A stretch of 46,960 nucleotides of DNA from Candidatus Parcubacteria bacterium (GCA_026395755.1 JAPLYC010000073.1:1-46960); one strand, 5' to 3'; positions 10,111-28,091 are shown, counted from the stretch's first letter. Translations and numbers: made by a program. The notes: a model not told the origin generated them from the letters alone.

Positions 10111-10160
10111 CGTTATTTCGTATGGTTAATTAATAGCGATAAGCGGGATTTTTAAAAGTA

Positions 10161-10499: not shown

Positions 10500-10682
10500 A
10501 TGTATTTTGGTTAGTGATTTATTGGTGAATGGGTTAGGATGCTGGTTTGGTGAATAGTGTATAGTGTAAAGTGTATAAACCTTAACACCTGGCACATAAC
10601 GCCATACTAACTTCTTTACCTATTCACATTTCACCTGTGGATGGTAAATAGGGTTAACGGTAACAAAGCGTATAACTTTGGG

Positions 10683-10769
10683 CGTGATTCGTTATCCGGT
10701 ATCGTTTGGCGTTTCGTTTTACGTTTGTCGTTTGTCGAAACGTAACCCGAAACCGAAAAACGATAAACG
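10683..10769. repeat. CG-ladder element copy 1 (14/14 CG)
   Basis: CG at offsets 0,7,14,20,27,32,39,46,53,58,65,71,78,85; CGTTTCG/CGAAACG cores. Confidence 0.9.
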
Positions 10770-10860
10770 AGGTGCTTCTAAGCTAATTTCGCTAAAGTTA
10801 GTATTTTTTATATACTGACGATTTAACCCTACATATATACACTATATTAAATAATCCCGC

Positions 10861-10889
10861 TTGACAACCCCCAGATGGTTTGTTACTAT
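10861..10889 (+). promoter_or_regulatory. rpoB promoter
   Basis: TTGACA-N17-TACTAT with extended TG. Confidence 0.75.
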
Positions 10890-11019
10890 TATAACACTAG
10901 AGAGTTCCCGCTATAGTTTTATAAACTAAGTTGCAAAATAGTGGGGTTTATTTTCACTTCTTAATTAAATATTATTCTTAATAAAACTCGCCCAACAAGT
11001 GGGAGGCGGGCTATTTTTT

Positions 11020-14000
11020 ATGTCTAGCAAAAAAAATACCATTCAAGTTCAATCAGCGGTTCAAACTAAGTTGGAAAAAAGAAGATTTTTCAGCAAAGAA
11101 CATGAGGCCATGGAAGTGCCTGATTTGGTTGAAGTTCAGAAAAATTCTTACAATTGGTTTATCAGAGAAGGCTTGCGCGAGCTTTTTGATGAAATAACGC
11201 CGATTAAGGATTTTGGCGGACGCAATCTGGAATTAGCGTTTAAAGATTATTATCTGGATGAGCCAAAATTTGATGAAAAAACATCTCGAGCTAAAAACAT
11301 TACTTACGAAGCTTCCTTGCGAGTCAAAGCGGCTTTGGTCAATAAGAAGGATGATATGAAAAAAGAGCAGGAAATTTACCTGGGTGATTTTCCGGTGATG
11401 ACCGACCGCGGTACTTTTATTATCAATGGCATTGAAAGAACGGTTATTTCCCAGATTATCAGATCAGCCGGTGTATTTTTTACATCCAATTATCTTCGAG
11501 GCCACCGCTATTACGGCGCCAAGATCATTCCAAACCGCGGTGCCTGGCTGGAAATAGAAACTGATGCCAATAATATTTTATGGGTTAAAATTGACCGCAA
11601 AAGAAAAGTCGCTTTGACTTCCTTGCTGCGCGCTTTTGGCTATTCCTCTAATGAAGAAATTTTAGCTTTATTTAAGGAGGCTGACAGCAATCTTGGCATT
11701 AAATATATCCAAAATACTTTGACTAAAGATATTGCCAAAAATATGGATGAAGGTTTGATTGAAGTATATAAAAGAATCAGACCGGGCGATATGGCTACGG
11801 CAGATAATGCCAAGTCTTTGATTTATTCTATGTTTTTCAGATTTGAACGTTATGATTTGGGCAAGGTCGGCCGCTACAAAATTAATCAGCGTTTTAATTT
11901 AAATCTGGCAAATGTACCGGATAACAGGATTTTACGCAAAGAAGATTTATTGGAAATTATTAAGGAAATTATCCGCTTGAATATTGCGCAGGTTGATTCT
12001 GACGATGTTGATCATTTGTCCAACCGCCGCATCAGGTCAGTGGGTGAATTGATTCAGAATCGTTTCCGCATCGGTTTGGCTCGTATGGAAAGAATCGTCA
12101 GGGACAAAATGAGCACGGTTGATATTGAATCAATGACTCCCAGCAAATTAGTCAATGCCAAGCCTGTCATGGGCGTGGTCAAAGAATTTTTCATGTCTTC
12201 CCAATTGTCGCAGTTTATGGATCAGGTAAATCCTTTAGCGGAATTGGAACATAAGCGCAGAATTTCTGCCATGGGCCCGGGCGGTTTATCCAGAGAACGA
12301 GCAGGTTTTGAAGTTCGTGACGTGCATACCACTCACTATGGCAGAATTTGTCCGATTTCTACGCCAGAAGGCCCAAATATCGGGTTGGTCGGGCAACTGG
12401 CAAGCTATGCCAAAGTTAATGAATATGGTTTTATAGAAACTCCTTATCGCGTGATAGAAAGAATTGCCCTGGAAGATATTAAGGATCCGGAAACTAATAA
12501 AGTGGCAATTAAAAAAGGACAAAAAGTCCCTAAAGAATTAATTGATAAGTTAAGAGCAAAAAATTTAAATTATAGCGTTAAATCCAGAGTAACTGATGAA
12601 GTTATTTATTTAAATGCTTTGGCAGAAGAAAGGTCAGTTACCACCGCGGCGACTACACCACTTGATGAAAATGGCCATTTTGTTAATGCTAAAGCCGAAG
12701 TCAGAAAATTCGGCAAGCCGGATATTTCTCCGGTAGAACAGCTTGATTATATGGATGTGGCTTCCAATCAGATCGTCAGTATTTCCACTTCTTGCATTCC
12801 ATTCTTGGAACATGATGATGCGGTTAGAGCTTTGATGGGCACCAATATGCAGCGCCAAGCAGTACCTTGCATTCGGCCGGTTCCGCCATTGGTGGGCACA
12901 GGCATGGAAAGTAAGGCGGCTTTATATTCAGGCTATTTAGCTATCAGCAAAGCAGACGGCAAAGTCGTTAATGTTGACGGTAGCGGCATTGAAGTTTTAG
13001 AAGACAAAGGCGATTTGAAATTTTATGATTTAAATAAATTTGAGAGATCTAATGCTTCAACCTGCATTAACCAGCATCCGACAGTCCAGAAAAACGAACG
13101 AGTTAAAAAAGGACAGATAATGTCTGATGGCCCTTCAATTGCGGAAGCGGAATTAGCATTGGGACAGAATGTGCTGGTCGCTTTCATGGCTTGGGGCGGT
13201 TACAATTATGAAGACGCCGTTATTATAAATGAAAGGGTAGTGCAGAAAGATTATTTTACTTCTATTCATATAGAAAATTATCAGGTGGAAGTTCGGGAAA
13301 CAAAGCTGGGGCCTGAAATCGTCACTTCGGATATACCAAATATTGCCGAAGAAAAACTGAAAAATTTAGATGAAAATGGGGTGGTCAGAATCGGCGCCGA
13401 AGTTTCTTCAGGCGATATTTTGGTCGGCAAAATTACTCCCAAAGGTGAAACCGAGCTTTCAGCTGAAGAAAAATTATTGCGTGCCATTTTCGGTGAAAAA
13501 GCCCGAGATGTGCGCGACAGCTCTTTATACCTGGAACATGGCGATCACGGCAAAGTTATTGATATTAAAATTTTTACTCAAGAACACGGTGATAAATTAT
13601 CTCCGGGCGTAACTCAAATGGTTCAGGTGGCAGTAGCTGATTTACGAAAAATCCAGATTGGTGATAAAATCGCCGGCCGTCACGGCAATAAAGGCATTAT
13701 TTCTAATGTTGTGCCTGCCGAGGATATGCCGTTTTTAGCCAATGGTACCCCGATTGATTTTATTTTGAGTCCCTTGGGTGTGATTTCCCGTATGAATTTA
13801 GGACAAATATTAGAAACTCATTTGGGTCTGGCTGTTCATACATTAGGATTTAAAGTAGCCACCCCGGTTTTTTACGGTGTCAGCGAGGAAAAAATTAAAG
13901 AATTGTTAAAGCAAGCCGGTTTTCCGGAAAATGGCAAACTGACATTATATGACGGCCGCACCGGCGATGCTTTTAGCAATAAGGTAACTGTCGGTTATAA

Positions 14001-14388
14001 ATATATTTTGAAACTGAATCATATGGTGGAAGATAAGATTCATCAAAGGTCAATCGGCCCATATTCATTGATTACTCAGCAGCCTTTGGGCGGTAAAGCG
14101 CAATTTGGAGGCCAAAGATTTGGTGAAATGGAAGTCTGGGCTCTGGAAGGTTATGGCGCCGCTCATACTTTGCAGGAAATTTTGACCATTAAATCAGATG
14201 ATGTGCCGGGCCGCGCCAAAGCTTATGAATCTATTATTAAGGGCGAACCGATCAGAAAATTAAATATTCCGGAATCATTTAATGTCTTGGTTCGCGAACT
14301 TAAAGGCCTTTGTTTAGATGTGGAATTATTGGACGGTAAGAATGTGCTTGATGACACAACCAAGGAAGATTCCAAGAAGATCAGGTAA
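11020..14388 (+). CDS. rpoB: RNA polymerase beta subunit
   Basis: GRICPISTPEGPNIG, GDKIAGRHGNKG, GGQRFGEMEVWALE; start set at ATG 11020 rather than GTG 10999. Confidence 0.99.
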   Translation: MSSKKNTIQVQSAVQTKLEKRRFFSKEHEAMEVPDLVEVQKNSYNWFIREGLRELFDEITPIKDFGGRNLELAFKDYYLDEPKFDEKTSRAKNITYEASLRVKAALVNKKDDMKKEQEIYLGDFPVMTDRGTFIINGIERTVISQIIRSAGVFFTSNYLRGHRYYGAKIIPNRGAWLEIETDANNILWVKIDRKRKVALTSLLRAFGYSSNEEILALFKEADSNLGIKYIQNTLTKDIAKNMDEGLIEVYKRIRPGDMATADNAKSLIYSMFFRFERYDLGKVGRYKINQRFNLNLANVPDNRILRKEDLLEIIKEIIRLNIAQVDSDDVDHLSNRRIRSVGELIQNRFRIGLARMERIVRDKMSTVDIESMTPSKLVNAKPVMGVVKEFFMSSQLSQFMDQVNPLAELEHKRRISAMGPGGLSRERAGFEVRDVHTTHYGRICPISTPEGPNIGLVGQLASYAKVNEYGFIETPYRVIERIALEDIKDPETNKVAIKKGQKVPKELIDKLRAKNLNYSVKSRVTDEVIYLNALAEERSVTTAATTPLDENGHFVNAKAEVRKFGKPDISPVEQLDYMDVASNQIVSISTSCIPFLEHDDAVRALMGTNMQRQAVPCIRPVPPLVGTGMESKAALYSGYLAISKADGKVVNVDGSGIEVLEDKGDLKFYDLNKFERSNASTCINQHPTVQKNERVKKGQIMSDGPSIAEAELALGQNVLVAFMAWGGYNYEDAVIINERVVQKDYFTSIHIENYQVEVRETKLGPEIVTSDIPNIAEEKLKNLDENGVVRIGAEVSSGDILVGKITPKGETELSAEEKLLRAIFGEKARDVRDSSLYLEHGDHGKVIDIKIFTQEHGDKLSPGVTQMVQVAVADLRKIQIGDKIAGRHGNKGIISNVVPAEDMPFLANGTPIDFILSPLGVISRMNLGQILETHLGLAVHTLGFKVATPVFYGVSEEKIKELLKQAGFPENGKLTLYDGRTGDAFSNKVTVGYKYILKLNHMVEDKIHQRSIGPYSLITQQPLGGKAQFGGQRFGEMEVWALEGYGAAHTLQEILTIKSDDVPGRAKAYESIIKGEPIRKLNIPESFNVLVRELKGLCLDVELLDGKNVLDDTTKEDSKKIR

Positions 14389-14435
14389 AAAACATCGATT
14401 TATTTATTTTATCATTTAATATTTAATAATTTTAT

Positions 14436-17400
14436 ATGATTTTCAATCAAGCCAAGCCATTAGAATTTGACGGCATCAGATTAAAGCTAGCTTCTCCCGA
14501 AGTAATTAGAATCTGGTCGCACGGCGAAGTTACCAAGCCGGAAACGATTAATTATCGGACGCAAAAACCGGAAAAAGACGGCTTATTCTGCGAGAAAATT
14601 TTCGGGCCGTCTAAAGATTGGGAATGCTACTGCGGCAAATATAAAAAGATCAGGTATAAGGGGATTATTTGCGATAAGTGCGGCGTGGAAGTTACTCATT
14701 CCATGGTCAGACGCGAACGCATGGGGCATATTGAATTATGCTCGCCGGTTTCGCACATCTGGTTTTTACGCGGCGTGCCTTCACGCCTAGGTTTAGTTTT
14801 GGATATTTCCGTGCAAAGCCTGGAAAAGGTGATTTATTTTGCCAGCTTCATAATTACTAAAGTTAATCAGGAGCTGAAAGCCCAGGCAATGGAGCAGCTG
14901 AAGGAAGAATACAAAACTAAGAAAAAGCAGATAGAGGCTAATTTTAAAAACCGTGTCAATCAGATTAAAACCAATAAAAGTCTCAAGGAAAAAGAGCAGG
15001 ATAAAAAAATAATTGAATTAAACAAGGAAAGAGATCTGGAAGCAGCGGAATTCGAAAAAGAATATGTTAAAACCGAGACTGATTTAAAGGATCTAAAAAT
15101 AAAAAAAATTATTTCCGAGGATCAATATCAGGATTTGTCTCTTAAATTCGGCCATATTTTTGAAGTGGCCATCGGCGCTGAAGCGGTCAGAAAATTATTG
15201 GAGGTAATTGATCTGGAAAAATTAGTAAAAAGCTTGGACGCGGAATTAGAAGAGGCAATCGGCACCAAAAGAGAAAGAGCTGTTAAACGTATCAAGCTGG
15301 TTAAAAACTTGGTTAAAAATAAAATCAGGCCTGAATGGATGATTTTGAATATGATCCCCGTTATCCCGCCCGATTTAAGGCCAATGGTGCCTTTAGACGG
15401 CGGTCGTTTTGCCACCTCTGATTTAAATGATTTATATCGTCGCGTCATCAATAGAAATAACCGTTTGAAAAAACTGAAGGAATTAAATGCCCCGGAAGTT
15501 ATTATCCGCAATGAAAAAAGAATGCTTCAGGAAGCTGTTGATGCTTTGTTGGATAACAGCGCCAGACACTCAAAAACAACTACGGCTTCTACCGGCCAAA
15601 AAAGACAGTTGAAATCCATTGCTGATATTTTAAAAGGCAAGCAAGGCCGCTTCAGACAGAATTTACTGGGTAAACGTACTGATTATTCAGGCCGCAGCGT
15701 TATTGTCGTCGGTCCGAATTTGAAGTTGCACCAATGCGGTTTGCCCAAGCGCATGGCCTTGGAATTATTTAAGCCGTTTGTCATCAGTCAGCTCATTAAA
15801 CGTGAATTTGTCCATAATATCAGAAGCGCCAATAGGTTTATTGAAAGCAATCGTCCGGAAATCTGGGATATTTTGGAAGAAATAGTTAAAGACGCTCATG
15901 TCTTATTGAATCGCGCTCCGACTTTGCACCGTTTGGGCATCCAAGCTTTTAAGCCGATTTTAATTGAAGGTAAAGCTATTCACTTGCATCCTTTGGTTTG
16001 CGCTGCTTTTAATGCCGATTTTGACGGCGATCAGATGGCTGTTCATGTGCCTTTGACGGAACAAGCTAAAAACGAGGCCAAAGAATTGATGCTATCATCT
16101 AAAAATTTATTAAAGCCGGCAACAGGAAATCCTATCACCACTCCAAGAATGGATATTGTCTGGGGCTGCTATTATATAACGGAATTAAAGAGGTTGCGGG
16201 AAAAACCTCGATCTTTTGGTTCCTTTGAAGAAGCTGTTTTAGCTTATAACTCAAAGATCATTACTGTTTCTGAAGAAATTGAAGCCCGTGATATTTTACC
16301 GGGAAAAAAGAAACCGGAAAGAATTATTACCAATGTCGGCCGCATCTTATTTAACCGTTTATTACCTTCGGAAATAGGATTTTATAATGAACAGATAACC
16401 ACTAAAAATCTGGGTGATTTGATTAAATTTTCCCTGGAAAAAATGGGTAAGGATAGGACGGCCAGATTGCTTGATGACATTAAAGATCTTGGCTTTAAGT
16501 TTTTAACCCTAAGCGGTTATTCCTGGGGTATGGATGATTTGCCGGATTTAGTAGGTAAAAAGGAAATTGTAGATACCGGCGATCTCCAGATTGATGAAGT
16601 TAACGATCAGTTTCAGCAGGGTTTACTGACCAAGAGCGAGCGTCATTCAAAAATTATTGAAATTTGGACAGCAATTAAGGATAAAATCGTGCAGCTGGGC
16701 AAAGATTCATTGAATAAAGAAGGCCCGGTATATTCCATGGTAACTTCAGGGGCTCGCGGTTCCTGGACTCAGGTGACGCAGATGGTCGGGATGAAAGGCT
16801 TAGTGGCCAATCCGGCCGGTGAAATTATTGAACTGCCTGTCAAAGCCAGTTTCAAAGAAGGCTTTGATGTTTTGGAATATTTTATTTCTACTCATGGTTC
16901 CAGAAAAGGCTTATCAGATACTGCTTTAAGAACCGCCAATGCCGGTTATTTAACCCGTCGTTTAGTTGACGTTTCTCAGGACGTGGTAGTTCGTGAGGAA
17001 GATTGTGGCGATAAAAAAGGCATGCTTTATACTAAAAAAGATAGCGATGAAATCGGCGTTAATTTATTGGAGCGCGTCTGGGGCAGGGTTTGTCTGGAAA
17101 AAATTACCGATCCTAAAACAGGTGAAGTTGTCGTTGATAAAGATCAATTGATTACTGAAGCAGTAGTGCGCAAATTACAGCCCTTGAATCTGGAGCAGCT
17201 TACTGTCCGATCAGTTTTAACCTGCAAAATGACCAAAGGCCTTTGCACTAAATGTTATGGCTATGACCTGGGTTATAATGAAATGGTTAAATTGGGCGTA
17301 GCTGTAGGTATTATCGCGGCTCAAAGTATTGGTGAACCAGGCACCCAGCTGACCATGAGAACTTTCCATACTGGCGGTGTGGCCGGCACTGATATCACCC

Positions 17401-18323
17401 AAGGTTTGCCTCGCGTGGAAGAACTTTTTGAAGCTCGTCCGCCCAAACGCAAAGCAATTCTGGCTGAAGAAGACGGCCTAGCCACAATTTCTGATGCGCC
17501 GAAGAAAATTGAAGATGAAAAAGGCCGTGTCTTATTCAGCACTACCCATGGCCAAAAGATATTAAAGATAAAATTTGATGATGTGGAAGAGGACACCTAT
17601 TCTTTTAAAGGCCAATCCCCGACGCTGAAAGTCAAAGAAGGGGATAAGGTTTCTAAAGATGAAATCTTGTTTAAATTAGGCAAAACAGAAATGAAAGTTA
17701 AAAGACCAGGCGTGGTTAAAGTTACTGAAAAAACCGTAAAAGTAATCAGCAACGTTGAAAAGGAAAAAGAATATCTGATCCCGCAGGGCTATCGTTTATG
17801 GATCAATGACGGAGATTTTGTTAAAAAAGGCGATCAATTGACTGAAGGCAGTTTAGATTTACATCAATTATATAAGCTTAAAGGCCGCGATGAAGTCAAG
17901 CGTTATGTGGTTAAAGAAATCCAGTATATTTACGCTTCTCAAGGACAGCGTTTGAATGAAAAGCATATCGAAGTCATTATTAAGCAATTATTCAGCCGTG
18001 TCTTAATTAAAGATGCCGGGGATACCAATTTATTGCCCGGTGAAATCGTGGAAAAAGCTGAGATGGATGAAGCTAATATCGAGATTGATAAAACCGATGG
18101 CAAACACGCTACTTCTGAGGAATTATTTCTGGGCATTACCAAGGTTTCTCTGACCACCCGCAGTTTCTTATCGGCTGCTTCTTTTCAGGAAACTTCCCGT
18201 GTGCTGATTAATGCGGCTTTAACCGGTAAGATTGATAAGCTGGAAGGCTTGAAGGAAAATGTCATTATTGGCCGTTTGATTCCGGCCGGCACAGGTTTTA
18301 AAAGGAAGCCAAAGGAAGAATAG
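14436..18323 (+). CDS. rpoC: RNA polymerase beta' subunit
   Basis: Zn finger CYCGKYK...CDKC, NADFDGDQMAVH catalytic motif, GEPGTQLTMRTFH. Confidence 0.99.
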   Translation: MIFNQAKPLEFDGIRLKLASPEVIRIWSHGEVTKPETINYRTQKPEKDGLFCEKIFGPSKDWECYCGKYKKIRYKGIICDKCGVEVTHSMVRRERMGHIELCSPVSHIWFLRGVPSRLGLVLDISVQSLEKVIYFASFIITKVNQELKAQAMEQLKEEYKTKKKQIEANFKNRVNQIKTNKSLKEKEQDKKIIELNKERDLEAAEFEKEYVKTETDLKDLKIKKIISEDQYQDLSLKFGHIFEVAIGAEAVRKLLEVIDLEKLVKSLDAELEEAIGTKRERAVKRIKLVKNLVKNKIRPEWMILNMIPVIPPDLRPMVPLDGGRFATSDLNDLYRRVINRNNRLKKLKELNAPEVIIRNEKRMLQEAVDALLDNSARHSKTTTASTGQKRQLKSIADILKGKQGRFRQNLLGKRTDYSGRSVIVVGPNLKLHQCGLPKRMALELFKPFVISQLIKREFVHNIRSANRFIESNRPEIWDILEEIVKDAHVLLNRAPTLHRLGIQAFKPILIEGKAIHLHPLVCAAFNADFDGDQMAVHVPLTEQAKNEAKELMLSSKNLLKPATGNPITTPRMDIVWGCYYITELKRLREKPRSFGSFEEAVLAYNSKIITVSEEIEARDILPGKKKPERIITNVGRILFNRLLPSEIGFYNEQITTKNLGDLIKFSLEKMGKDRTARLLDDIKDLGFKFLTLSGYSWGMDDLPDLVGKKEIVDTGDLQIDEVNDQFQQGLLTKSERHSKIIEIWTAIKDKIVQLGKDSLNKEGPVYSMVTSGARGSWTQVTQMVGMKGLVANPAGEIIELPVKASFKEGFDVLEYFISTHGSRKGLSDTALRTANAGYLTRRLVDVSQDVVVREEDCGDKKGMLYTKKDSDEIGVNLLERVWGRVCLEKITDPKTGEVVVDKDQLITEAVVRKLQPLNLEQLTVRSVLTCKMTKGLCTKCYGYDLGYNEMVKLGVAVGIIAAQSIGEPGTQLTMRTFHTGGVAGTDITQGLPRVEELFEARPPKRKAILAEEDGLATISDAPKKIEDEKGRVLFSTTHGQKILKIKFDDVEEDTYSFKGQSPTLKVKEGDKVSKDEILFKLGKTEMKVKRPGVVKVTEKTVKVISNVEKEKEYLIPQGYRLWINDGDFVKKGDQLTEGSLDLHQLYKLKGRDEVKRYVVKEIQYIYASQGQRLNEKHIEVIIKQLFSRVLIKDAGDTNLLPGEIVEKAEMDEANIEIDKTDGKHATSEELFLGITKVSLTTRSFLSAASFQETSRVLINAALTGKIDKLEGLKENVIIGRLIPAGTGFKRKPKEE

Positions 18324-18343
18324 GAAATTGTAAGTTAATATAT

Positions 18344-18379
18344 AAAAAAACACTTCTCAGAAATGAGGGGTGTTTTTTT
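18344..18379 (+). terminator. rpoBC terminator
   Basis: A7-CACTTCTCA-gaaa-TGAGGGGTG-T7. Confidence 0.85.
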
Positions 18380-18383
18380 ATTT

Positions 18384-18470
18384 CGTTTATCGTATTACGG
18401 TTTCGGTTAACGTTTCGACAGACGTATTAAGTGATACGAAACGCCAAACGAAACCGAAGAACGTCTCACG
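18384..18470. repeat. CG-ladder element copy 2 (13/14 CG)
   Basis: Same offsets as copy 1; offset 46 is AG. Confidence 0.9.
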
Positions 18471-18560
18471 AAACAGCTATTTTGGTCAAAACAGACTGAC
18501 AAAATTAGAGTTAATAGATATGAATTTATCTAATTTTAGCCAAGATGTAACCAAGGGGGC

Positions 18561-18654
18561 TTGACAAGTCTCTTTAGATATGATATTATGGCAAATCACG
18601 CTAAAAAAGGGTAGAGATGCTCCTCTTGACAAAATGATTAAAACGTGCTATACT
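18561..18654 (+). promoter_or_regulatory. Two tandem near-consensus sigma70 promoters
   Basis: TTGACA-N17-TATTAT (18561-18589) and TTGACA-N17-TATACT (18626-18654), both with extended TG. Confidence 0.8.
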
Positions 18655-18685
18655 TATAAAACATGAAATTTGAAAATTAAGCGAT

Positions 18686-18940
18686 TTAGTGACCAGCAAT
18701 ATGGGGGTAGTAGTGCATTAGGGTCAGTAGAGTTTTCCGGCCCTGCTAGAAAACTTCTACGCCTGGTGTTTAACTGATAAGGCTCTGTCCTATATCAGTC
18801 GTTCCGCTTTGCGGGACAACACCTCCATATTATTGGTCATTAAGTTCGAGATTCAGACTAAGGGCAATATAGAGTTCCATTCATTTAAATGTACTTTTAA
18901 ACAAAGCGGGACTCCTTGAGCCCTTTGTCGGGATCTTGAA
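18686..18940 (+). ncRNA. Structured leader/ncRNA: ~22-bp closing stem enclosing three hairpins, then a second long stem
   Basis: TTAGTGACCAGCAATATGGGGG pairs with CCTCCATATTATTGGTCATTAA (G-U pairs on +); 18845-18865 pairs with 18920-18940. Confidence 0.6.
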
Positions 18941-18982
18941 AACTTTTATCTGTTCTCAAAACAACAAACAAAAGGAGGGGCA

Positions 18983-19111
18983 ATGAAAGCGTATGTCATG
19001 ATGACTAAAAACAGCATTGTGCGCCTAGTTCCTCTGGGACTGGCGCGGCACTACGAAAGGGTTGGCCTCGGAATGATCGTGGCCTTCCTGATCCATGGTC
19101 AGCTGCACTAG
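18983..19111 (+). CDS. 42-aa small protein MKAYVMMTKNSIVRLVPLGLARHYERVGLGMIVAFLIHGQLH (not in ORF track)
   Basis: AAGGAGGGG SD directly before the ATG; TAG stop at 19109-19111. Confidence 0.55.
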   Translation: MKAYVMMTKNSIVRLVPLGLARHYERVGLGMIVAFLIHGQLH

Positions 19112-19302
19112 GCTGACACCAAATCAAGATTCGCAGCACGAGGGACTTACAAAAGTCCCTACTTCATCTCAAGACGGGATAGTCTCGTGTAGATTATTTT
19201 GTCTTGAGATGAGGTCTATAATGATGATCTTTCAAATTTATTGGTGGAGAAATCCACGCCCTATCAGGGAGAAATTCCTGATATAACCAAAGGAGGACTA
19301 CC

Positions 19303-20148
19303 ATGACTGATCCCAATACCACCCCGGCCACCGACACCCCGACCGAAACCGTGATCGAGCCCAAGGCTGAGGAACAGGTTTACACCTGCGCCTGCTGCGG
19401 ACACGAAGCCACGGCCGAAGACGGCGTGGTCACCGAGCAGGTGAACGGCAAGCCGAAGATCGTCGACGCGACCATGTGGGCCGCGGCCGGCGAAGTCGGA
19501 TCCGAAACCGTGCTCAAGGTCTTCTGCAAGACCTGCGCGACCGAGGGCAAAGAGGACGACGGACAGACGTTCTTCCCGCTGAAGAACGCCCTGGCCTATG
19601 CCGACCGCGTCAAACGGCACTTTCCCAAGCGCGAGCGTTTGCTCGAGCAGGCGAACGAGCCGGAGATGCGGCAGCCGCGTCCCGAGATGTTCTGCAAGCG
19701 GTGCGGAAAGCGCCACGGGCAGATCGATAACTATCGGGGCGGGGTGACCGTCATCCGCAGAGCCTACCGCGTCGACTTCAATCAGAAGCCGATCATCGCG
19801 GAGTTCCTGTGCGGTGAGTGCCTCACGGAGCTTGGGCTCGTGCCCAAGAGGAATTCCGACGGCAGCTTCACGCAGCCCGAGGGACTTTTTCCCCCGTGGA
19901 AGACGCTTCAGATCGCCCTGCATGCGGAGGACAATCGTCTCGATCGGATCGAGAGGGACAAAGCCAACAAGGCACGGCGTGAAGAACAGCGTCAGCGGGA
20001 CAAAGAACTGCGTGAGCGGGCCATGGCTCCCAAGGCCGCCCCGACCACGAAGGTCTTCCAGCGTCCCGTCAGGCACGAACCCCTGGGCAAGGCCGGCACC
20101 GGTTCCATCGGGAAACCCGCCAACCGCAAGGACGGCACTCGCGGCTAA
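19303..20148 (+). CDS. Orphan GC-rich protein with four CxxC pairs (two putative Zn fingers) and a basic/charged C-terminus
   Basis: AAGGAGG SD; CACC, CKTC, CKRC, CGEC; strong GC3 bias. Confidence 0.8.
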   Translation: MTDPNTTPATDTPTETVIEPKAEEQVYTCACCGHEATAEDGVVTEQVNGKPKIVDATMWAAAGEVGSETVLKVFCKTCATEGKEDDGQTFFPLKNALAYADRVKRHFPKRERLLEQANEPEMRQPRPEMFCKRCGKRHGQIDNYRGGVTVIRRAYRVDFNQKPIIAEFLCGECLTELGLVPKRNSDGSFTQPEGLFPPWKTLQIALHAEDNRLDRIERDKANKARREEQRQRDKELRERAMAPKAAPTTKVFQRPVRHEPLGKAGTGSIGKPANRKDGTRG

Positions 20149-20243
20149 CCGGTCGCTCTTTGGAAAAATCTTGGCTAAATGCCAAGTTGGGATAATGGTA
20201 GATATGCTACCAACCTAATCCCGTTAAACAACAGGTTACGAAC

Positions 20244-20759
20244 ATCCCAAATATTTTCAGTTAATTCTGGAATATATTGGGATACTTGGAGAGGATCCAA
20301 TCTGCGAAAGCAATGATGGTCAAAGACCATTCTATTACTTAAGCAGACATCCCGTCGGGTAGAGACATTTACTGTCCTGCCCTACTTTCTGAGACCGTAA
20401 AGCAATTTGCGGTTTGAGAAAGTGAGCCCTTGACAGAATTAATAATTCTTGCTAAGCTTGCAAAGGAATTTTCCCGAGATGCCCCGTTGGCTCTCTGAAA
20501 AGATCTTCGCCTGATGCGGAGTTTGGGCAAATGGCTGCTTTGACAGCCAACCTGGCCCTGAAAAACGAAAGGTTTTGACAACGTTCCTATTATTCCCTGG
20601 GGAATATAGAGAGGAACACATTGGAGAGGATCCAAATCTGTTGCGGCAATAATGGAAGGTTAACAACTATTCCTGCGCCAAAACAGGCAAATCTCCAGGG
20701 GCGAGACCTAGTTTCGCCCAACTTTCTGAGACCGTAAAGCAATTTGCGGTTTGAGAAAG
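20244..20759 (+). ncRNA. Two tandem copies (~337-nt period) of a structured RNA module
   Basis: Identical 39-mer ACTTTCTGAGACCGTAAAGCAATTTGCGGTTTGAGAAAG at 20384-20422 and 20721-20759; TTGGAGAGGATCCAA at 20286 and 20621; sequence-divergent but structurally equivalent hairpins between them. Confidence 0.7.
20430..20458 (+). promoter_or_regulatory. Internal sigma70 promoter between the two RNA modules
   Basis: TTGACA-N17-TAAGCT with extended TG. Confidence 0.65.
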
Positions 20760-22036
20760 ACAAAGGTTAAAAAGTTCATATAACCTTGCCACCTTATCCT
20801 AGAACGGAAAGCTTGATAAAGTAATTAAATGCTGATTCAGCAGAAAAACAAGTTTGCGTTCTTAGATAAGGAAGTATTTTGAAAATATTTTAAAAAGGAG
20901 GACGTGTGAACCGGAAGGCTTTTTTTTGCGGCAAAATCAGGGGACCGCCCCTGAGTAAGTTCGAGGAGACAGGATAAAACTCCCGATCGACGCCAAAGGA
21001 GCCAATATGCGCTGGAAATTCAAGTTGAGCGCGGGGACCTGAGACCCCGAGTACACTCAGGTACTGGTAAAGAGCAATTTTTATCAGTAAGGTAATGTAG
21101 TCGTGTCAGCCTGGATACGTGATCATCGCCCAGCTCGGGCAGATTCGCGGATCTTGACGCGGCGAGGTACTGCGCTCCAAAATCACCGGGAACCATACGG
21201 AGGTACTATGACCTTCCCAAGCGGTTTCACCTAGTTACTTAGCTCACTCACCCCGGGCCGAAGATGCCCTCTGTGAAGCTTCGGACTGTACGCTGCTGCT
21301 TACCGGCATAGGTTTGCCGGACACATCCAGGCAGCAGTCCACGGCTGGTTTGACACACTGGAACCGGGCGCCATGCCCATCGTTCAAACCAACTCACCGC
21401 TTCTCCATACCTCGGAGGACAAACAATGCCTGAATTACGGCTCTTGTCTCGGGGTTCCTGGATCCCCTGAATGCAAAAATAAAAACCAGGGACAGCCTGC
21501 TCGAAGATTTTGAGCAGCCGACAAAGAAGCCAGAACGTTTGGGTTCATAAATCTTTGGACTGTCTGCTCGATAGAGTAGGCCCCAAAGTGACTCGAACGT
21601 TTAGGCGAAAAACACTCCTTGCAGAACTCTAAAAAGGGATTAGACAGTTACGACCGGCCAAGTGCCTAACTAACTAGTCATCCCACACAAGTAAGATAAA
21701 GAGATTCTGGCAAGGAACCGACTTTAATAAAGAAGCACGCATCGCCGGACCCGGCACCGAGTTTTCGGTAGCCTTCCCGGCACGCTTTCAGGCCCACCCG
21801 ACGCCTTACCGTTGCAACGCGAAGTCGTTGACGGCCCCGCCGAACCCGGCACTTGCGCTGACTCCTTGTCGAGCGCTCCGCCGAACCGGCAGTATCCTTA
21901 CGGGTAGCGGCCAGACCAGGGGCCGGGGTGCGAGACGCTACGTTTCGCCCCCGGCCCACGCACTAGATTAATCGAGAAAACAGGAAAAAGAAACAGAGGA
22001 GACTTCTAGCCCTTTCAGTCACCTAAAGAGAAAGGG

Positions 22037-22065
22037 GCGCCAAGTGTAACAGCTTGGCGTTTTTT
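22037..22065 (+). terminator. Terminator closing the structured island
   Basis: GCGCCAAG-loop-CTTGGCGT followed by a T tract. Confidence 0.75.
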
Positions 22066-22070
22066 AATTT

Positions 22071-22157
22071 CGTCACACGATTATCGGTATCGGTTTACGT
22101 TTCGGCTAGCGGTTAACGTACAACGTAACGTTTACCTACACCGTTTAACGACAAACG
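22071..22157. repeat. CG-ladder element copy 3 (13/14 CG)
   Basis: Same offsets; offset 65 is CT. Confidence 0.9.
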
Positions 22158-22195
22158 AAAAAGCCAGCCCTTTGCGAACAAAGAGCTGGCTTTTT
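22158..22195 (-). terminator. HU terminator (bidirectional)
   Basis: A5-GCCAGCCCTTTG-cgaa-CAAAGAGCTGGC-T5. Confidence 0.85.
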
Positions 22196-22218
22196 ATATG
22201 TGGGTAGTAGTTTATAGA

Positions 22219-22515
22219 TTAAGCCGCGGGAGCTTCTTTTTTCTTCAAGGCATCTTTTAAGGCCTTGCCGGATTTAAATTTGGGAATAATAACTTCAGGA
22301 ATGTCGATTTTTTCAGAAGGTTTTTGAGGATTAACGCCTTTGCGCGCGTGTCTGATTTTGGCTGAAAAAGTGCCAAAGCCGGTTAAGACGACTTCTTCGT
22401 TTTTTTGCAAAGATTCAATGATGGAATCCAGCATGGTTTCCAAAACCTCCTCAATCTGTTTTTTTGTTAATTTTGTTTTTGAGGCTACGACCTCAATTAG
22501 AGCGGCTTTGTTCAT
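22219..22515 (-). CDS. hup: DNA-binding protein HU
   Basis: MNKAALIEVVA...LTGFGTFS...ARKGVNPQ...PKFKSGKALKDAL. Confidence 0.96.
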   Translation of the reverse strand: MNKAALIEVVASKTKLTKKQIEEVLETMLDSIIESLQKNEEVVLTGFGTFSAKIRHARKGVNPQKPSEKIDIPEVIIPKFKSGKALKDALKKKEAPAA

Positions 22516-22576
22516 ATGGGTTGGTAAGGTTAGATTAAGTTATATAAGGTTATATTAGGTTTTATAAGGTTGCTCT

Positions 22577-22660
22577 GAAATACGGATTATTTTCACTGAT
22601 TCCACGGATACATTTTAAATTATTAAAATCTGTGTTATCCGTGAACAAAATCCGTGGTTC
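22577..22660. repeat. ACGGAT/ATCCGT ~9-nt-periodic palindromic element in the HU leader
   Basis: GAAATACGGATT..TCACTGATTCCACGGAT ... ATCTGTGTTATCCGTGA..AATCCGTGGTTC. Confidence 0.7.
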
Positions 22661-22705
22661 TTTTTTAGCCAATATTACCTTAATTACATTATATACCCTA
22701 ATACT

Positions 22706-23509
22706 TTAGATTTCAACATCTATCCACACCCTCTCGATTTTGACGGCTTTTTGGGTTTTGGTATCAATTTCCAGATAAACGCCGTTAATTTGGCAGATTC
22801 CACTTTCCGGAATCTCTCCTGGGTCATTAACCTGGCTTAAAAAGTTTTTGATAATGATTCTTTTATCCAAACCAATCACAGAATTTTTAGCTCCGGTCAT
22901 GCCAACATCGGAAATATAAGCTGTGCCTTGTTCTAATATTTGGTCATCTGCAGTCTGCACATGCGTATGACTGCCAATAAAGGCGGAAATCCGGCCGTCC
23001 AGATAAAAGCCCAAAGCTCTTTTTTCGCTGGTAGCTTCGGCGTGGAAATCAACAATAATAGCGGCTAAATTCTCATGCTTATGTTTCTCAAGGATTTTAT
23101 CAACGCAGCGAAACGGGTCATCAAAATCTTCCCGAAAAAAGACGCGGCCGACTAAATTGATAATTAAAATTGATTTTAGGCCAACTTGAACCACTTTATC
23201 GCCGCTACCCGGCGTGTCCTCGGGGTAATTGGCCGGTCTAACCAGGGGAAAGTCCTTTTTACTCAGCAGAATATAGGCGTCTTTTTTATCCCAGACGTGA
23301 TTGCCGGAGGTGAAAAAATCAATGCCTGCTGCCATCATTTCCTGTGTGGTTGTTTCGGTCAGGCCTTTGCCATGAGACAGATTTTCACCATTGGCAATTA
23401 CCAAATCAGGCTCATACTTTTTCTTGAGCTTGGGCAGACCGGCAATTACAGCCTGGCGGCCGATTTTGCCAAAGATGTCGCCGAGGAATAATATTTTGAG
23501 GTTGGACAT
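22706..23509 (-). CDS. ymdB: YmdB-like (TIGR00282) metallophosphoesterase
   Basis: ILFLGDIFGKIGR, NGEN, TSGNHVWD, RPANYP, DFHAEATSEK, GSHTHVQTAD. Confidence 0.95.
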   Translation of the reverse strand: MSNLKILFLGDIFGKIGRQAVIAGLPKLKKKYEPDLVIANGENLSHGKGLTETTTQEMMAAGIDFFTSGNHVWDKKDAYILLSKKDFPLVRPANYPEDTPGSGDKVVQVGLKSILIINLVGRVFFREDFDDPFRCVDKILEKHKHENLAAIIVDFHAEATSEKRALGFYLDGRISAFIGSHTHVQTADDQILEQGTAYISDVGMTGAKNSVIGLDKRIIIKNFLSQVNDPGEIPESGICQINGVYLEIDTKTQKAVKIERVWIDVEI

Positions 23510-23515
23510 ATTTTT

Positions 23516-23602
23516 CGTATTACGTTATTCGGTATCGGTTAAGGTTTCGTTAAACGTTTAACGTATATCGAAACGAATGTCGAAACCGTAAAACGATAAA
23601 CG
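23516..23602. repeat. CG-ladder element copy 4 (13/14 CG), filling the rny-ymdB spacer
   Basis: Same offsets; offset 27 is GG. Confidence 0.9.
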
Positions 23603-23604
23603 AA

Positions 23605-25128
23605 TTAGCGTGCGTACTCAGTTACTCTCATTTCGCGAATGACATTAACTTTGATTTCACCGGGATATTTTAAATCCTCTTCTATTTTACGAGCAATGCT
23701 TTGAGCCAGTTTGGCTGCTTCCAGATCGTCAATCTGATCAGGCATGACAAAAACGCGGATTTCGCGGCCAGCCTGGATGGCATATGACTTGGAAACTCCG
23801 GGAAAGGTGTTAGCCACATTTTCCAATTCTTCCAGTCTTTGCAAATATCTTTCATAAGTATCTTTGCGGGCTCCTGGTCGGGCGCCGGAAATAGCATCAG
23901 CAACTTTGACAATAATGCCCTCCAGACTTTTGGGATTATCTTCATGATGAGCAATGCAAATATAAGCGATATCTTCAGGCATATTAAATTTCTTCATGAT
24001 GTCATAGCCTATTTCAGGATGTCCGCCCTTGACTTCATGGTCAACAGCCTTGCCAATGTCATGAAAAAGTCCGCCTTTTTTACAGATAGTGACATCAGCA
24101 CCAATTTCTTCGGCAATTAATCCGGCTAAATGCGCCACTTCCAATGAATGCAAAAGTACATTGTGGCCATAGCTGGTCCTGAATTTTAAACGGCCTAAGA
24201 TTTGAACAAGCTTGGGATCAATCCCGGTAACGCCCATTTCAAAGACAGAGTCTTCACCGGATTTTTTAATTTCCACGGCCAGTTGTTTTTTGGCTGTTTC
24301 AATGGCTTCTTCAATTTTGGTCGGATGAATACGGCCGTCTAAAATTAAAGCTTCTAAAGCGCGTTTAGCAACCTGGCGTCGAATAGGGGAAAAGGCGGAT
24401 ATGGTAATAGCCATGGGTGTATCGTCAACAACAATTTCCACACCGGTTAATTGTTCAATCGTTCTGATGTTTCTGCCTTCGCGCCCGATAATTCTGCCTT
24501 TCATTTCATCGCTGGGCAAATCAACAGTTGAAGTGGTAATTTCCTGAGCATGTGAAATAGAGCATCTTTGAATAGCTAATGCCAGAATATCGCGTGCTTT
24601 TTTGTCCAATTCTTCCTGACCTTCAGCCAGTACTTTTTTCATGCGGCCTAAAATATCCTCCTTAATCGTTTTTTCTGTATTATCCAGAAGAACCTTAGCA
24701 GCCTCGCCTTTGGTCATGTTTGCAATCTTTTCCAGCTTTTGCATCTGTTCTTCTCTGATTTTATTGATTCTTTCCTTAACATCCTCAATCTCTTTAGCAC
24801 GATCCAAAAGTTTTTGCTGTTTATTTTCCAGATCCAGCAGCTTTTGGTCAAAAGTGCTTTCGCGCTTTTCCAGCCTTTGCTGTAAATAGCTTAGTTCTTT
24901 ACGTCTTGTTTGTTCTTCACGTTTGGCATCGTCAATAATAGCTAAAGCTTTATCTTTAGCCTGCAGTAAAAACTCTTTTTGTTTATTTTTTGCTTCGGTA
25001 ATCAGATGTTCAGCCTTGGCTTCTGCGCCCTCTACTTCTTTTTTGGCTTGGTAGCGTCTGATCAGATAACCAGCGCCAAAACCAAAAATAATGGCTAAAG
25101 CTCCAATTAAAAAAATTGTCAGTTCCAT
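23605..25128 (-). CDS. rny: Ribonuclease Y
   Basis: N-terminal TM, coiled coil, KH domain (MKGRIIGREGRNIR), HD domain (LFHDIGK); start trimmed to the ATG at 25128. Confidence 0.97.
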   Translation of the reverse strand: MELTIFLIGALAIIFGFGAGYLIRRYQAKKEVEGAEAKAEHLITEAKNKQKEFLLQAKDKALAIIDDAKREEQTRRKELSYLQQRLEKRESTFDQKLLDLENKQQKLLDRAKEIEDVKERINKIREEQMQKLEKIANMTKGEAAKVLLDNTEKTIKEDILGRMKKVLAEGQEELDKKARDILALAIQRCSISHAQEITTSTVDLPSDEMKGRIIGREGRNIRTIEQLTGVEIVVDDTPMAITISAFSPIRRQVAKRALEALILDGRIHPTKIEEAIETAKKQLAVEIKKSGEDSVFEMGVTGIDPKLVQILGRLKFRTSYGHNVLLHSLEVAHLAGLIAEEIGADVTICKKGGLFHDIGKAVDHEVKGGHPEIGYDIMKKFNMPEDIAYICIAHHEDNPKSLEGIIVKVADAISGARPGARKDTYERYLQRLEELENVANTFPGVSKSYAIQAGREIRVFVMPDQIDDLEAAKLAQSIARKIEEDLKYPGEIKVNVIREMRVTEYAR

Positions 25129-25336
25129 ATTTTTAATAAGGTAAAATAGAGTCCAAGGATTATGCAAAGAACATTAAATCCAAAGCCCGATGGCTTTGTT
25201 CGAAAGAGAGGAGGTTAAAATTTTTTTATATGAGTTCATGAGTAAAAGTTAGCTGAAAGGCTAATAATAACCTAAATTGCTCTAAAATTGCTGAAAATCC
25301 TTGTAACCCTATTGGGTTTATTTATTAACTACTTTA

Positions 25337-25365
25337 AGCTTAGCATTAAAATCAATTTATGGCAA
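25337..25365 (-). promoter_or_regulatory. rny promoter
   Basis: TTGCCA-N17-TAAGCT with extended TG. Confidence 0.6.
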
Positions 25366-25463
25366 GCATTGATTATAGCTTTGGTCATAAAATTGACATT
25401 TTACGATCTCGCATGTTAAGTTGATAAAAAGTAATGTTTGAAAAATAAAAAGGAGGGAAGGCA

Positions 25464-25856
25464 ATGGAGATACCCAAAAAGTATCAAAGGTTCATTGACC
25501 AGGGAGTTAAGGTAAGAACAGACAAGAATCTTAGTCAGAAAGATGAAGTAAAATTTACCTTTCCCCACCCTAATTATGAGTTAGTGAAGGAGTTTTTACT
25601 GGTGTTGGATCCCAAGGATTTTATTGGTTATGAGGTCGCCGTTTATATCTGGGGCAAATGCCAGACCCCTGAATGTTCAGAGGAATTTGGTGCGGAATTT
25701 TCCGGGGAATTTTTAACAAAAAACATCCGGAGGACTAAAGAATTTCAAAGCAATGGGGGTATTTTATACGTCCATGTTTGTCCCTATTGTTCCTTTAAAA
25801 TGCTAGGGACATTAGGCTTTGGGGAGGAGGAATGTGGCTCGCCCCGACCAAATTGA
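25464..25856 (+). CDS. Orphan protein with CxxxxC...CxxC (putative Zn-binding)
   Basis: AAGGAGG SD, TTGACA-N18-TAAGTT promoter at 25393-25422, terminator at 25896-25920. Confidence 0.7.
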   Translation: MEIPKKYQRFIDQGVKVRTDKNLSQKDEVKFTFPHPNYELVKEFLLVLDPKDFIGYEVAVYIWGKCQTPECSEEFGAEFSGEFLTKNIRRTKEFQSNGGILYVHVCPYCSFKMLGTLGFGEEECGSPRPN

Positions 25857-25895
25857 CGCGGTCAAAAATGAATTTTTACTTTATTGTTGACCTTC

Positions 25896-25920
25896 AAGAG
25901 ACTGCTTCGGCAGTCTTTTT
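25896..25920 (+). terminator. Intrinsic terminator
   Basis: AGAGACTGC-TTCG-GCAGTC-T5. Confidence 0.85.
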
Positions 25921-25923
25921 AAA

Positions 25924-25952
25924 TTGACTTTTTATCTATTATTACGTATATT
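25924..25952 (+). promoter_or_regulatory. infB promoter
   Basis: TTGACT-N17-TATATT. Confidence 0.6.
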
Positions 25953-26000
25953 TAATAAGTAAAGGGATTTTTTAAATCCTTTTTATTATCTAAAATTATT

Positions 26001-26087
26001 CGTTATTCGTTTGTCGGTGTCGGTTAGTGTTTCGTTAGACGTTTATCGATAGACGAAACGAATGCCGAAACCGAATAACGTTTTACG
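26001..26087. repeat. CG-ladder element copy 5 (13/14 CG), in the infB 5' UTR
   Basis: Same offsets; offset 27 is TG; ends 3 nt before the infB ATG. Confidence 0.9.
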
Positions 26088-26090
26088 ACC

Positions 26091-28091
26091 ATGAATGTAA
26101 CCGAATTAGCCCGAAAATTGAAAGTCAACACCAATGAGCTTCTGGACATATTGCCGGAGTTTGGTTTTGATATTGGCAAAAGAGCAATTAAAGTTGATGA
26201 AAAAGTAGCGCAAAAAATTATTAAATTAGGCAATAAAATTCAAGACAGGCTGATTGCGCAGCAAAAAGAAAAAATGGCCAGCTTAGAAAAATTAACTGCG
26301 GTTGTGGCTGAACCAACGGAGCAGAAGGAAATTGAAATTCCCCCGGTGATTACGGTGAGGGAATTAGCCCAAGTAATAAACAGGCCGGTCAGCGAAGTTA
26401 TTAAACAGTTGATGAAAAATGGGGTTTTGGCTTCTTTAAATGAAAGGATTGACTTTGAAACCGCAGCTATTATGGCTGATGAATTTGGCCTTAAAGTCGT
26501 TCCGGCCGAATCAGGGGATACCCAGCAATTACAGGATGTAGGCTTAAGAATTAAGGAAATTTTGGCTCAGGAAAAAAAGAGCCAGTTAAAGATAAGGCCG
26601 CCCGTTGTGGTGGTGATGGGTCATGTTGACCATGGTAAAACTAAATTATTGGATACGATCAGAAAAACCAATATCATTGATACTGAATCAGGCGGTATTA
26701 CCCAGCATATCGGCGCTTATCAGGTGACTAAAAAAGGCAAGATACTTACTTTTATCGATACTCCGGGCCATGAAGCTTTTACTGCTATGCGCGCCCGCGG
26801 TGCCAAGGTAGCAGATATTGCTATTTTAGTCGTGGCAGCTAATGACAGTGTCAAACCCCAGACTTTAGAAGCGATTAAAATAATTCAGCAGGAACAGATT
26901 CCCATGATTGTCGCTATTAATAAAATTGATTTGCCGGAAGCGGATATTGAAAAAGTTAAAAAAGATTTGAGTTCTTTGAATCTGATACCTGAAGATTGGG
27001 GCGGCAAAACTATATGTCAGCCGATTTCAGCCAAAGGTAATATCGGCATTGATGATTTATTGGACACCATTATTTTAATTGCGGAAATGGAAAAAGATAA
27101 AATCGTCGCTAATCCCCAAGGCGCGGCCATTGGTACAATTATTGAAGCTCATATTGACAAGGGAGAGGGTCCTGTGGCGACTGTCTTGGTGCAGAACGGC
27201 ACTTTAAAAGTCGGGGATAATTTATGCATTAACAATAATTTTTTTGGTAAAGCCAGGGCGCTTAAGGATTTTATGAACCGTGAGGTTAATGAAGTGAGCC
27301 CGGCCATGCCCGTTAAAATAATTGGTTTAAAATATGCGCCTAAAGTCGGCGATTTGGTGGAAGTAACTTGTGACATTGAACGCAGGCATAAAAAGTTCAA
27401 AGAGCATGAGCTAACCAAAGACAGCCAGCAGCTTTCTCGGGTTACTAAAAAAGCCGAAGAAACAGGCGATGAAAGCGTTAAAAGGCTGAATTTGATTATT
27501 AAGGCTGATGTCCTGGGTTCTTTGGAAGCAATTGCCGAGTCATTGGAGAAAATTGATTCCCGGGAAGTTAAAGCGAATATTCTTTCCAAGGGATTGGGTA
27601 ATATCACTGATGCAGATATTGATTTAGCGGCTTCCAGCAATGCCATAATTTTAGGCTTTAAAGCCAAGGCTGCGCCTGTGGCCCTGGATTTGGCCCGGGA
27701 AAAGAAAGTGGAAATAAAATATTATGAGATTATCTATAAGTTAATTGAGGAAATCAAGGGTAAAATGTCTGCCCTGCTTGAGCCGGAAATTGTCAGAAAA
27801 GTTTTAGGCAAGGGCGAGGTCTTAGCCCTATTTAAATCCGAATCCAAAAAGGCAATCATTGGCGTAAAAATTTTAAGCGGTAAAATCAATAAAAACATTA
27901 AGGTGGATATTTATCATAAAAAAGAATTAGTGGACACGGCTGAAATTGAAGAAATTAAAATCGGCAAAGAAAAAGTCTCGGAAGTGGCAGAAGGACAGGA
28001 TTGCGGTGTCAGCCTGCTAACTAAGCGAGAAATTTCCGTCGGTGACAGCTTGGAATTTTATCTGGAAGAAAAGATCATTAAAAAATTGTAA
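26091..28091 (+). CDS. infB: Translation initiation factor IF-2
   Basis: [49 protein letters not shown]. Confidence 0.98.

Follow-up and report, generated by a model that had tools for sequence, protein, structure and literature searches.

What is the 87-bp palindromic ladder of CG dinucleotides that recurs five times between positions 10,683 and 26,087 of a 46,960-nucleotide contig from Candidatus Parcubacteria bacterium (GCA_026395755.1 JAPLYC010000073.1:1-46960; the window, by which we mean this whole stretch)? The original prediction, made from the sequence alone, offered three options for this CG ladder: a binding array for an oligomerising protein, a non-autonomous mobile or recombination element, or a product of A/T-biased error-prone copying. 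We examined the ladder across the source genome, G000 (assembly of 1,455,527 bp in 120 contigs, the window being contig C8), two sister species (G001 and G002), further genomes of the class and phylum, and metagenome contigs. The second option is the best supported. The CG ladder is probably a gene-less miniature of a hairpin-type selfish cassette with a PF05635/TIGR02436 four-helix-bundle gene (S23p/Avd-like), and we likewise favour seeing in it a variant of the cassette kind known from 23S rRNA intervening sequences (IVSs) that bear an open reading frame (ORF), as described in the available part of PMC4990558.

The five window copies (10683..10769, 18384..18470, 22071..22157, 23516..23602 and 26001..26087, none assigned a strand) are each 87 bp long and aligned without gaps over 127 columns, comprising the element and 20 nt on either side. 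All 44 invariant columns fell within the 87 bp and the flanking sequences were unrelated, which bears out the coordinates, the length and the absence of indels first reported. Defining a rung as a CG at its stated offset of the ladder (14 rungs, giving 28 rung letters), we counted 14, 13, 13, 13 and 13 rungs of 14 in copies 1 to 5, matching the 66 of 70 first reported, at steps of 7-7-6-7-5-7-7-7-5-7-6-7-7.

Scanning the whole of G000 for CG at the 14 offsets returned 63 loci that retain 10 or more of 14 rungs, 11 of them with all 14, against a maximum of 7 of 14 in three random genomes simulated with the dinucleotide content of G000; the reversed rung pattern gave 0 matches. The ladder thus far exceeds chance, as claimed, in a genome with 39.8% G+C and an ordinary CpG frequency (observed/expected 0.97). 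A profile built from 42 good copies recovered 89 loci, or 82 once adjacent pieces were joined, spread over at least 55 contigs, and the window holds only five of them. The CG ladder is a real, abundant repeat of G000, present about once per 17 kb. The invariant geometry claimed for it holds for the window copies but not genome-wide, where about 8 loci are 112–114 bp long, with one additional 26-bp module (steps 7, 7, 7, 5), and about 18 are halves or truncated copies.

Pooled over the arms, the repeated unit reads W-W-W-C-G-T/G-T-W, with T (64%) or G (26%) directly after CG and T (78%) at the next position. The statement that only CG placement is kept needs widening: CG is retained, but the T/G-T that follows it is conserved as well. 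Spacers are 84% A/T (43% A, 41% T, 8% G and 8% C). Across the 42 good copies, CG columns pair between the arms in 94.9% of cells, whereas the other arm columns pair in 52.6%, compared with 60.6% in column shuffles (z −7.5), a deficit that stems from conserved positions that do not complement each other; spacers had been described as often non-complementary, and the deficit is stronger than that. The element is palindromic in its rungs, but a weak asymmetry gives it an orientation: orienting the copies gained 147 log-likelihood units, versus 55–67 in three symmetric simulations.

One copy carries a gene. At G000:C103:1095-1588, a CG ladder is split near its apex by an insert of ~385 bp, with rung steps of 7, 7, 6, 7, 5, 7, 7, 7 in the left part and 7, 7, 5, 7, 6, 7, 7 in the right part. 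The insert holds a minus-strand gene whose protein passes the cut-offs of both PF05635 (23S_rRNA_IVP; 65.6 bits) and TIGR02436 (‘four helix bundle protein’; 52.3 bits). Its AlphaFold model (predicted local distance difference test, pLDDT, 88.5) is a four-helix bundle, and the best Protein Data Bank (PDB) matches of this model are Xcc0516 (2gsc; template modelling (TM) score 0.92), BT_0352 (2rld) and Avd of diversity-generating retroelements (DGRs). The last 23 residues are encoded within the ladder arm and have low model confidence. A co-occurring four-helix-bundle or Avd-like family, which the original prediction had proposed looking for, is therefore present inside a copy of the element itself. 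The 113-bp variants have the same arm layout minus the gene, so that the gene-bearing copy, the 113-bp form, the 87-bp form and the halves can be arranged as a reduction series. Taken together, two inverted arms of ~7-nt units are present, a gene of this family stands between them at a single locus, C103, and copy number differs among related genomes: at no more than 3 mismatches in the 28 rung letters, there are 47 matches in G000, 3 in G001 and 5 in G002.

Inverted arms around such genes are not peculiar to C103. All ten PF05635 genes of G000 (six intact, four broken) lie between inverted arrays of 7–8-nt units, the unit motif being particular to each gene, which makes it unlikely that the C103 gene landed in a ladder by chance. 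Their inverted-repeat flank scores were 18–30, eight of them above the 99th percentile (22) of 1,235 other G000 genes (mean 12.4, s.d. 3.1). Four other arm types also occur gene-less, at 3 to 25 additional places in G000 counted per arm, and the sister species carry other ladder types in slots that the CG ladder occupies in G000, for example between an equivalent terminator and promoter. At G000:C119:950-2100, a terminator–CG ladder–promoter unit occurs twice, ~980 bp apart, flanking an ORF with a CheA-P1-like motif; the equivalent place in G002 has a single unit, containing a different ladder type.

Of 41 genomes of the class, 34 have PF05635 genes, with 1–16 in each. At 72 PF05635 loci of other phyla, drawn from Bacteroidota, Acidobacteriota, Omnitrophota, Planctomycetota and others, the mean flank score was 20.7 versus the null mean of 12.4, and 18 of the 72 exceeded the null 99th percentile. 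Periodic arms numbered 41 of 144 at these loci, with a lag of 7 in 22, 8 in 18 and 4 in 1. CG-rung arms themselves surround four-helix-bundle genes at four other loci, including L126 and L143, which were inspected individually. PADLOC defence models gave nothing meaningful for six four-helix-bundle proteins. The sole reverse-transcriptase gene of G000 (PF00078, 63.9 bits) lies at G000:C57:1399-2638 and is followed directly by a four-helix-bundle gene with inverted ladder arms; the two genes may form the core of a DGR.

The closest described counterpart is the ORF-bearing 23S IVS of Coxiella burnetii and Leptospira. According to the available part of PMC4990558, the Coxiella IVS combines an S23p ORF with tandem heptamers and a stem of terminal inverted repeats that is cut by RNase III. 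Here too the loop of an inverted-repeat stem contains a small PF05635 four-helix-bundle ORF, heptamers stand in tandem beside the ORF, gene-less short forms exist, and origin and spreading are unexplained; the same source leaves the function and spread of S23p/PF05635 proteins and rRNA IVSs unassigned since their first description. The CG ladder departs from this pattern in position, number and unit structure. Whereas 23S IVSs are inserted in helix 25 or 45, the ladder lies between protein genes, by terminators or by a tRNA gene, and the window contains no rRNA, all five of its copies being between protein genes; a 23S rRNA gene is missing from the G000 assembly as a whole. It reaches ~82 copies in one genome, almost all of them gene-less, and its units are degenerate except for CG(T), with steps that are irregular yet fixed.

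Paired heptamer arrays offer a second likeness. The units GGGAATC in Xanthomonas and GGGGAYT in Nostoc (PMC4692102) and TAACTGA in Beggiatoaceae (PMC4679880) are described, in the portions of these papers that we could consult, as intergenic 7-nt repeats, often in convergent stem-loop pairs and often near start codons. Such arrays repeat their unit in tandem almost perfectly and vary in unit number, whereas the CG ladder has a fixed unit number, fixed irregular spacing and variable unit sequence. The same portions mention no four-helix-bundle gene, and our literature search, which did not cover supplements, found only the Coxiella IVS as a link between heptamer arrays and PF05635 genes. The assertion that the ladder fits no known class stands in part. 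It does not look like a repetitive extragenic palindromic (REP) element, an insertion sequence (IS) end or a CRISPR (clustered regularly interspaced short palindromic repeat) array, and Rfam, while giving four matches in the window at E values up to 1, placed none at the elements; at gathering score, nothing matched in the window or at 14 metagenome loci. Its build, on the other hand, is that of S23p-bearing rRNA IVSs and paired heptamer arrays. With regard to miniature inverted-repeat transposable elements, the gene of the only gene-bearing copy encodes a four-helix-bundle protein, and direct repeats at the flanks were sought by eye only.

How such a cassette might work can be outlined from its layout. 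Each arm is a degenerate array of ~7-nt units in which the CG(T) of one arm faces the (A)CG of its mirror unit, and the facing rungs make short G-C-anchored helices with fixed internal loops between them. Rungs at fixed steps are putative contact points for a factor that copies or keeps the cassette, most probably the cassette's own four-helix-bundle oligomer. The first option of the original prediction, a binding array, is plausible in this form, with the pentamer-family four-helix-bundle protein of C103 as the candidate binder. By analogy with rRNA IVSs, the hairpin may make insertion between cistrons tolerable. The G000 copies themselves would be old and now maintained by selection, not by fresh transposition.

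The age of the copies can be read from several comparisons. Among 60 copies (1,770 pairs), the maximum pairwise identity was 75 of 87 letters (at most 86%), and nearest neighbours shared 60–75 of 87; with no pair above 75/87, nothing points to recent copying or to a burst. Searching relatives with the gapped pattern, as had been suggested, found no CG ladder at up to 3 rung mismatches in the 38 other genomes of the class, and of 400 further genomes of the phylum, 1 had a single match when up to 2 mismatches were allowed. Each sister-species copy examined (four located by pattern search, three by synteny) occupies the orthologous site of a G000 copy. Among 30 orthologous stretches retrieved, the element was present at only three sites, and most other G000 sites checked are without a CG ladder in G001 and G002. 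In the three synteny-located orthologous pairs, 68 of 74 rung letters were kept versus 120 of 177 spacer letters (p = 3e-5); over all seven orthologous pairs the figures were 171 of 180 and 312 of 413, with the caveat that the tools by which partner copies were recognised give weight to the rungs. A copy that precedes a tRNA gene is identical in G001 at 87 of 87 positions; it is part of ~280 bp, noncoding DNA together with tRNA sequence, that are conserved better than the flanking genes. The unusual features of the repeat are thus its fixed irregular spacing, the retention of only CG(T) in each unit, the modest identity between copies and the slower change of rungs than of spacers.

Ladders of the same geometry occur elsewhere. 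An exact search of metagenome contigs yielded 16 pieces (15 distinct) with all 14 rungs, thirteen of them G+C-rich (0.55–0.65) and three A+T-rich, whereas the same search of viral contigs gave 0 matches. None of the 16 pieces matched G000 by BLASTN; perfect ladders in such pieces indicate that the geometry is older and wider than the genus. All 6 metagenome pieces tested fold well (z −2.5 to −9.4), whereas the five window copies fold only modestly (z −0.7 to −4.3 versus shuffles), and by comparison the ladders of G000 seem to be worn forms of a better hairpin. When 19 copies were aligned jointly, 25 columns were invariant and three column blocks were unpaired in most sequences. The covariation check that had been proposed gave a mixed outcome: pair 20/68 alternates between G-C and U-A and is unpaired in 0 of 19 copies, but covariation overall is weak, 22 of 500 shuffles reaching the observed score.

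Several observations weigh against a cassette origin. A single gene-bearing copy of the CG ladder was found, and its contig is 5.8 kb long in an assembly of 120 contigs; the nearest relatives of its protein (58–60% identity, in G002 and G007) lie between non-CG arms; and G001 retains conserved copies although it has no match to the C103 protein better than 29%. A four-helix-bundle gene was found in none of the 16 perfect-ladder metagenome pieces. The identity ceiling of 75/87 leaves no sign of recent copying, and long-term conservation of rungs at gene-less sites would suit a host function equally well. Neither a target duplication nor a clean empty site was seen: inspection of 42 flank pairs, by eye only, showed no direct repeats, and the orthologous spacers were too diverged, or contained other repeats, for alignments to fix the element boundary. 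As a non-autonomous mobile element, the ladder has in its favour the gene between the same arms at C103, the reduction series and the absence of an element from most sister sites checked.

Placement in the genome bears on what else the ladder could be. Nearly all loci are intergenic: by crude stop-to-stop frames, which cover 88.6% of G000, just 4 of the 89 are situated deep within a gene frame (binomial p ~1e-74). The 77 loci with two neighbours comprise 53 between co-directional, 14 between divergent and 10 between convergent genes. A start codon lies within 12 nt of the element edge at 24 of 82 loci, 24 of 75 gene ends are equally close, and the element occupies the entire stop-to-start spacer at 13. 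Nine of 10 genes starting at elements have a Pfam family and four of them match from residues 5–8 at the N terminus, from which we take the adjacent start codons to be real. Element ends as Shine–Dalgarno sites were considered and rejected, G000 being poor in such sites overall (196 of 1,037 genes versus a 7% background); its starts mostly have an A-rich stretch and a T at −1 ahead of them, and the 3′ end of 16S rRNA was not found in the assembly. Further copies stand directly behind terminator-like hairpins and directly ahead of promoter-like sites. The neighbouring genes share no theme (among them rpoB, rpoC, HU, RNase Y, YmdB, IF-2, release factor, SecA, MurJ, PGI and acetate kinase), and the element points in the same direction as flanking genes in 21 cases and the opposite in 19.

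With rungs conserved at gene-less sites, the strongest competing reading is that the ladder belongs to the host: a class of sites recruited as an array for a nucleoid or regulatory protein, or as an operon-punctuation hairpin, into one copy of which the four-helix-bundle gene merely landed. Old copies that nevertheless retain exact spacing and rung letters are what such a function would leave, as are the close approach to start codons (24 of 82), the 13 filled stop-to-start spacers and the tRNA-side copy that is identical in two species within a noncoding stretch conserved above its flanking genes. We nonetheless consider it unlikely, since every PF05635 gene in G000 has its own arms, the flanking genes have no functional theme, orientation is unbiased with respect to gene direction, and the sister species mostly have no element, or another ladder type, at the sites checked, with 1 of 400 other genomes of the phylum containing one. 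A purely RNA-level role, as an RNase III site or an mRNA stabiliser in polycistronic transcripts, would explain the predominance of co-directional neighbours (53 of 77), the strong folding of the metagenome relatives and the covarying pair 20/68, and has a precedent in the IVS stems cut by RNase III (available part of PMC4990558). It seems less likely still: several copies stand behind a terminator and ahead of the next promoter, in stretches that should be little transcribed, G-U-type mismatches on the sense strand are not favoured (104 versus 92 A-C), and no strand bias exists (21 versus 19), so that a strand-specific RNA function is unsupported. Spacer columns that pair below shuffles, the modest folding of the window copies and the weak overall covariation point the same way. 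A strand-neutral hairpin, as DNA or as RNA of either strand, is possible.

Two further rivals invoke enzymes encoded by G000. A REPIN-like element (a REP doublet forming a hairpin) could be mobilised by a REP-associated tyrosine transposase (RAYT), an IS200-like Y1 enzyme; G000 has 8 PF01797 matches, and REPINs are intergenic hairpin doublets of similar size in the available part of PMC3116915. REP and REPIN systems are likewise dispersed, intergenic, imperfect palindromes of ~100 bp, vertically inherited and long-lived, as far as the consulted parts of PMC3116915 and PMC3337134 describe them. Every one of the 13 genomes of the family has Y1 genes, though, and 11 of these genomes have no ladder; of the 8 genes in G000, 0 are ladder-flanked, one being flanked instead by a different 68-nt repeat. 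A constant GTAG or CGTC end tag was not found, there is no master sequence with a population of near-identical copies, and the gene associated with the ladder encodes a four-helix-bundle protein, not a Y1 transposase. We rejected the RAYT link on the family-wide presence of Y1 genes, the lack of ladder flanks and the lack of a master copy, and consider this origin improbable. The different repeat is at G000:C91:8623-9382, where a Y1-transposase-like gene lies between two direct 68-nt copies (78% alike) containing a short perfect palindrome, an arrangement that is REP/RAYT-like and unrelated to the CG ladder. Of all the alternatives, the third option of the original prediction, mutagenic reverse transcription of the DGR type as the source of the variable spacers, is by far the hardest to credit. 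A reverse-transcriptase gene does stand beside a four-helix-bundle gene on contig C57. But spacers remain 84% A/T instead of taking any base, copies on at least 55 contigs lie far from that single enzyme, and orthologous copies diverge at ordinary rates. Among known systems, the C103 model shares its predicted fold with DGR Avd (PDB 4dwl and 8ub7; TM 0.77–0.83), and one G000 paralogue matches the Avd model weakly (49 bits versus a cut-off of 80); neither a reverse transcriptase nor a template repeat nor an adenine-specific variable repeat was found at ladder copies. Contigs from two other samples wholly cover three element copies and show no variants there; contigs of four DNA runs over 10000–27000 showed no joint or variant at elements and were mostly rpoB and rpoC of other organisms. 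We therefore rejected the DGR reading. Of the other families proposed for co-occurrence, neither RAYT nor a CpG methyltransferase is associated with the ladder, the latter giving no PF00145 (C5 methyltransferase) match in the 99%-complete G000, on which the CpG methylation reading was dropped.

Within the window, the five copies illustrate the range of intergenic contexts. Copy 1, with 14/14 rungs, lies between the divergent genes rbfA (10161-10595, minus) and rpoB (10999-14388, plus) and precedes a sigma-70-like promoter at 10861-10889. Beside it, at 10500-10660, is a second ladder-type palindrome, with ~7-nt GTG units in the left arm and CAC units in the right, that matches four tandem copies at G001:C6:241314-241780. 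Copy 2 (13/14 rungs, as in all the others) begins 3 nt past the terminator-like hairpin of rpoC (18342-18381); at its position, G001 has ~21 kb inserted after rpoC (G001:C4:325075-346465), including an IS200-type transposase gene at 345891-346247 (PF01797, 121 bits). Copy 3 has a hairpin and T-run as its left neighbour and is adjoined on the right by the HU gene's terminator-like hairpin (22158-22195, minus). Copy 4 occupies the spacer between the RNase Y stop and the YmdB start, leaving 2 nt to the stop of the RNase Y gene (23605-25167, minus) and 6 nt to the start of the YmdB gene (22706-23509, minus), and is found at the equivalent site in both sister species. Copy 5 follows a promoter-like site (25924-25952) and ends 3 nt ahead of the start codon of IF-2 (26091). 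A promoter role for the element was rejected, since a consensus scan placed sigma-70-like sites outside the window elements.

Copies 2 and 3 border a GC-richer stretch of 3.6 kb (18471-22070; 49–50% G+C versus 40% in the genome), copy 2 forming its left edge. The stretch contains one long ORF (19303-20148, 281 aa) without a Pfam match, strong sigma-70-like sites at 18561 and 18626, and a ~37-nt segment that occurs near both 20385 and 20725. Parts of the stretch show 75–79% conservation in G001. It may encode structured RNAs, though Rfam has no match there. Another palindromic repeat, with AAGGTT-type units at ~10-nt steps and a central hairpin, fills the HU–ymdB spacer (22516-22705), and for its portion at 22525-22660, G001 and G002 have matches at several dozen places. 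A separate repeat family of ~120 bp is represented at G000:C104:18663-18829, with at least 15 copies on other contigs.

The ~80 old gene-less copies of G000 amount to a natural experiment. Drift has brought the spacers near to saturation, but the CG(T) rungs are still in place at their original steps, which points to the positions that matter. We tentatively extend this to a joint view, to which we give distinctly less credence than to the cassette itself: PF05635 proteins may be oligomeric binders that read the sequence of their own arrays, here CG(T) at fixed steps; rRNA IVSs, the heptamer arrays of several phyla and the CG ladder may be one cassette system; and the ~80 gene-less copies in G000 may be kept by selection as protein-bound punctuation between genes. 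The heptamer arrays of Xanthomonas, Nostoc and Beggiatoaceae are likewise unexplained. For annotation, the finding means that many intergenic spacers of this small, Shine–Dalgarno-poor genome consist wholly of such elements.

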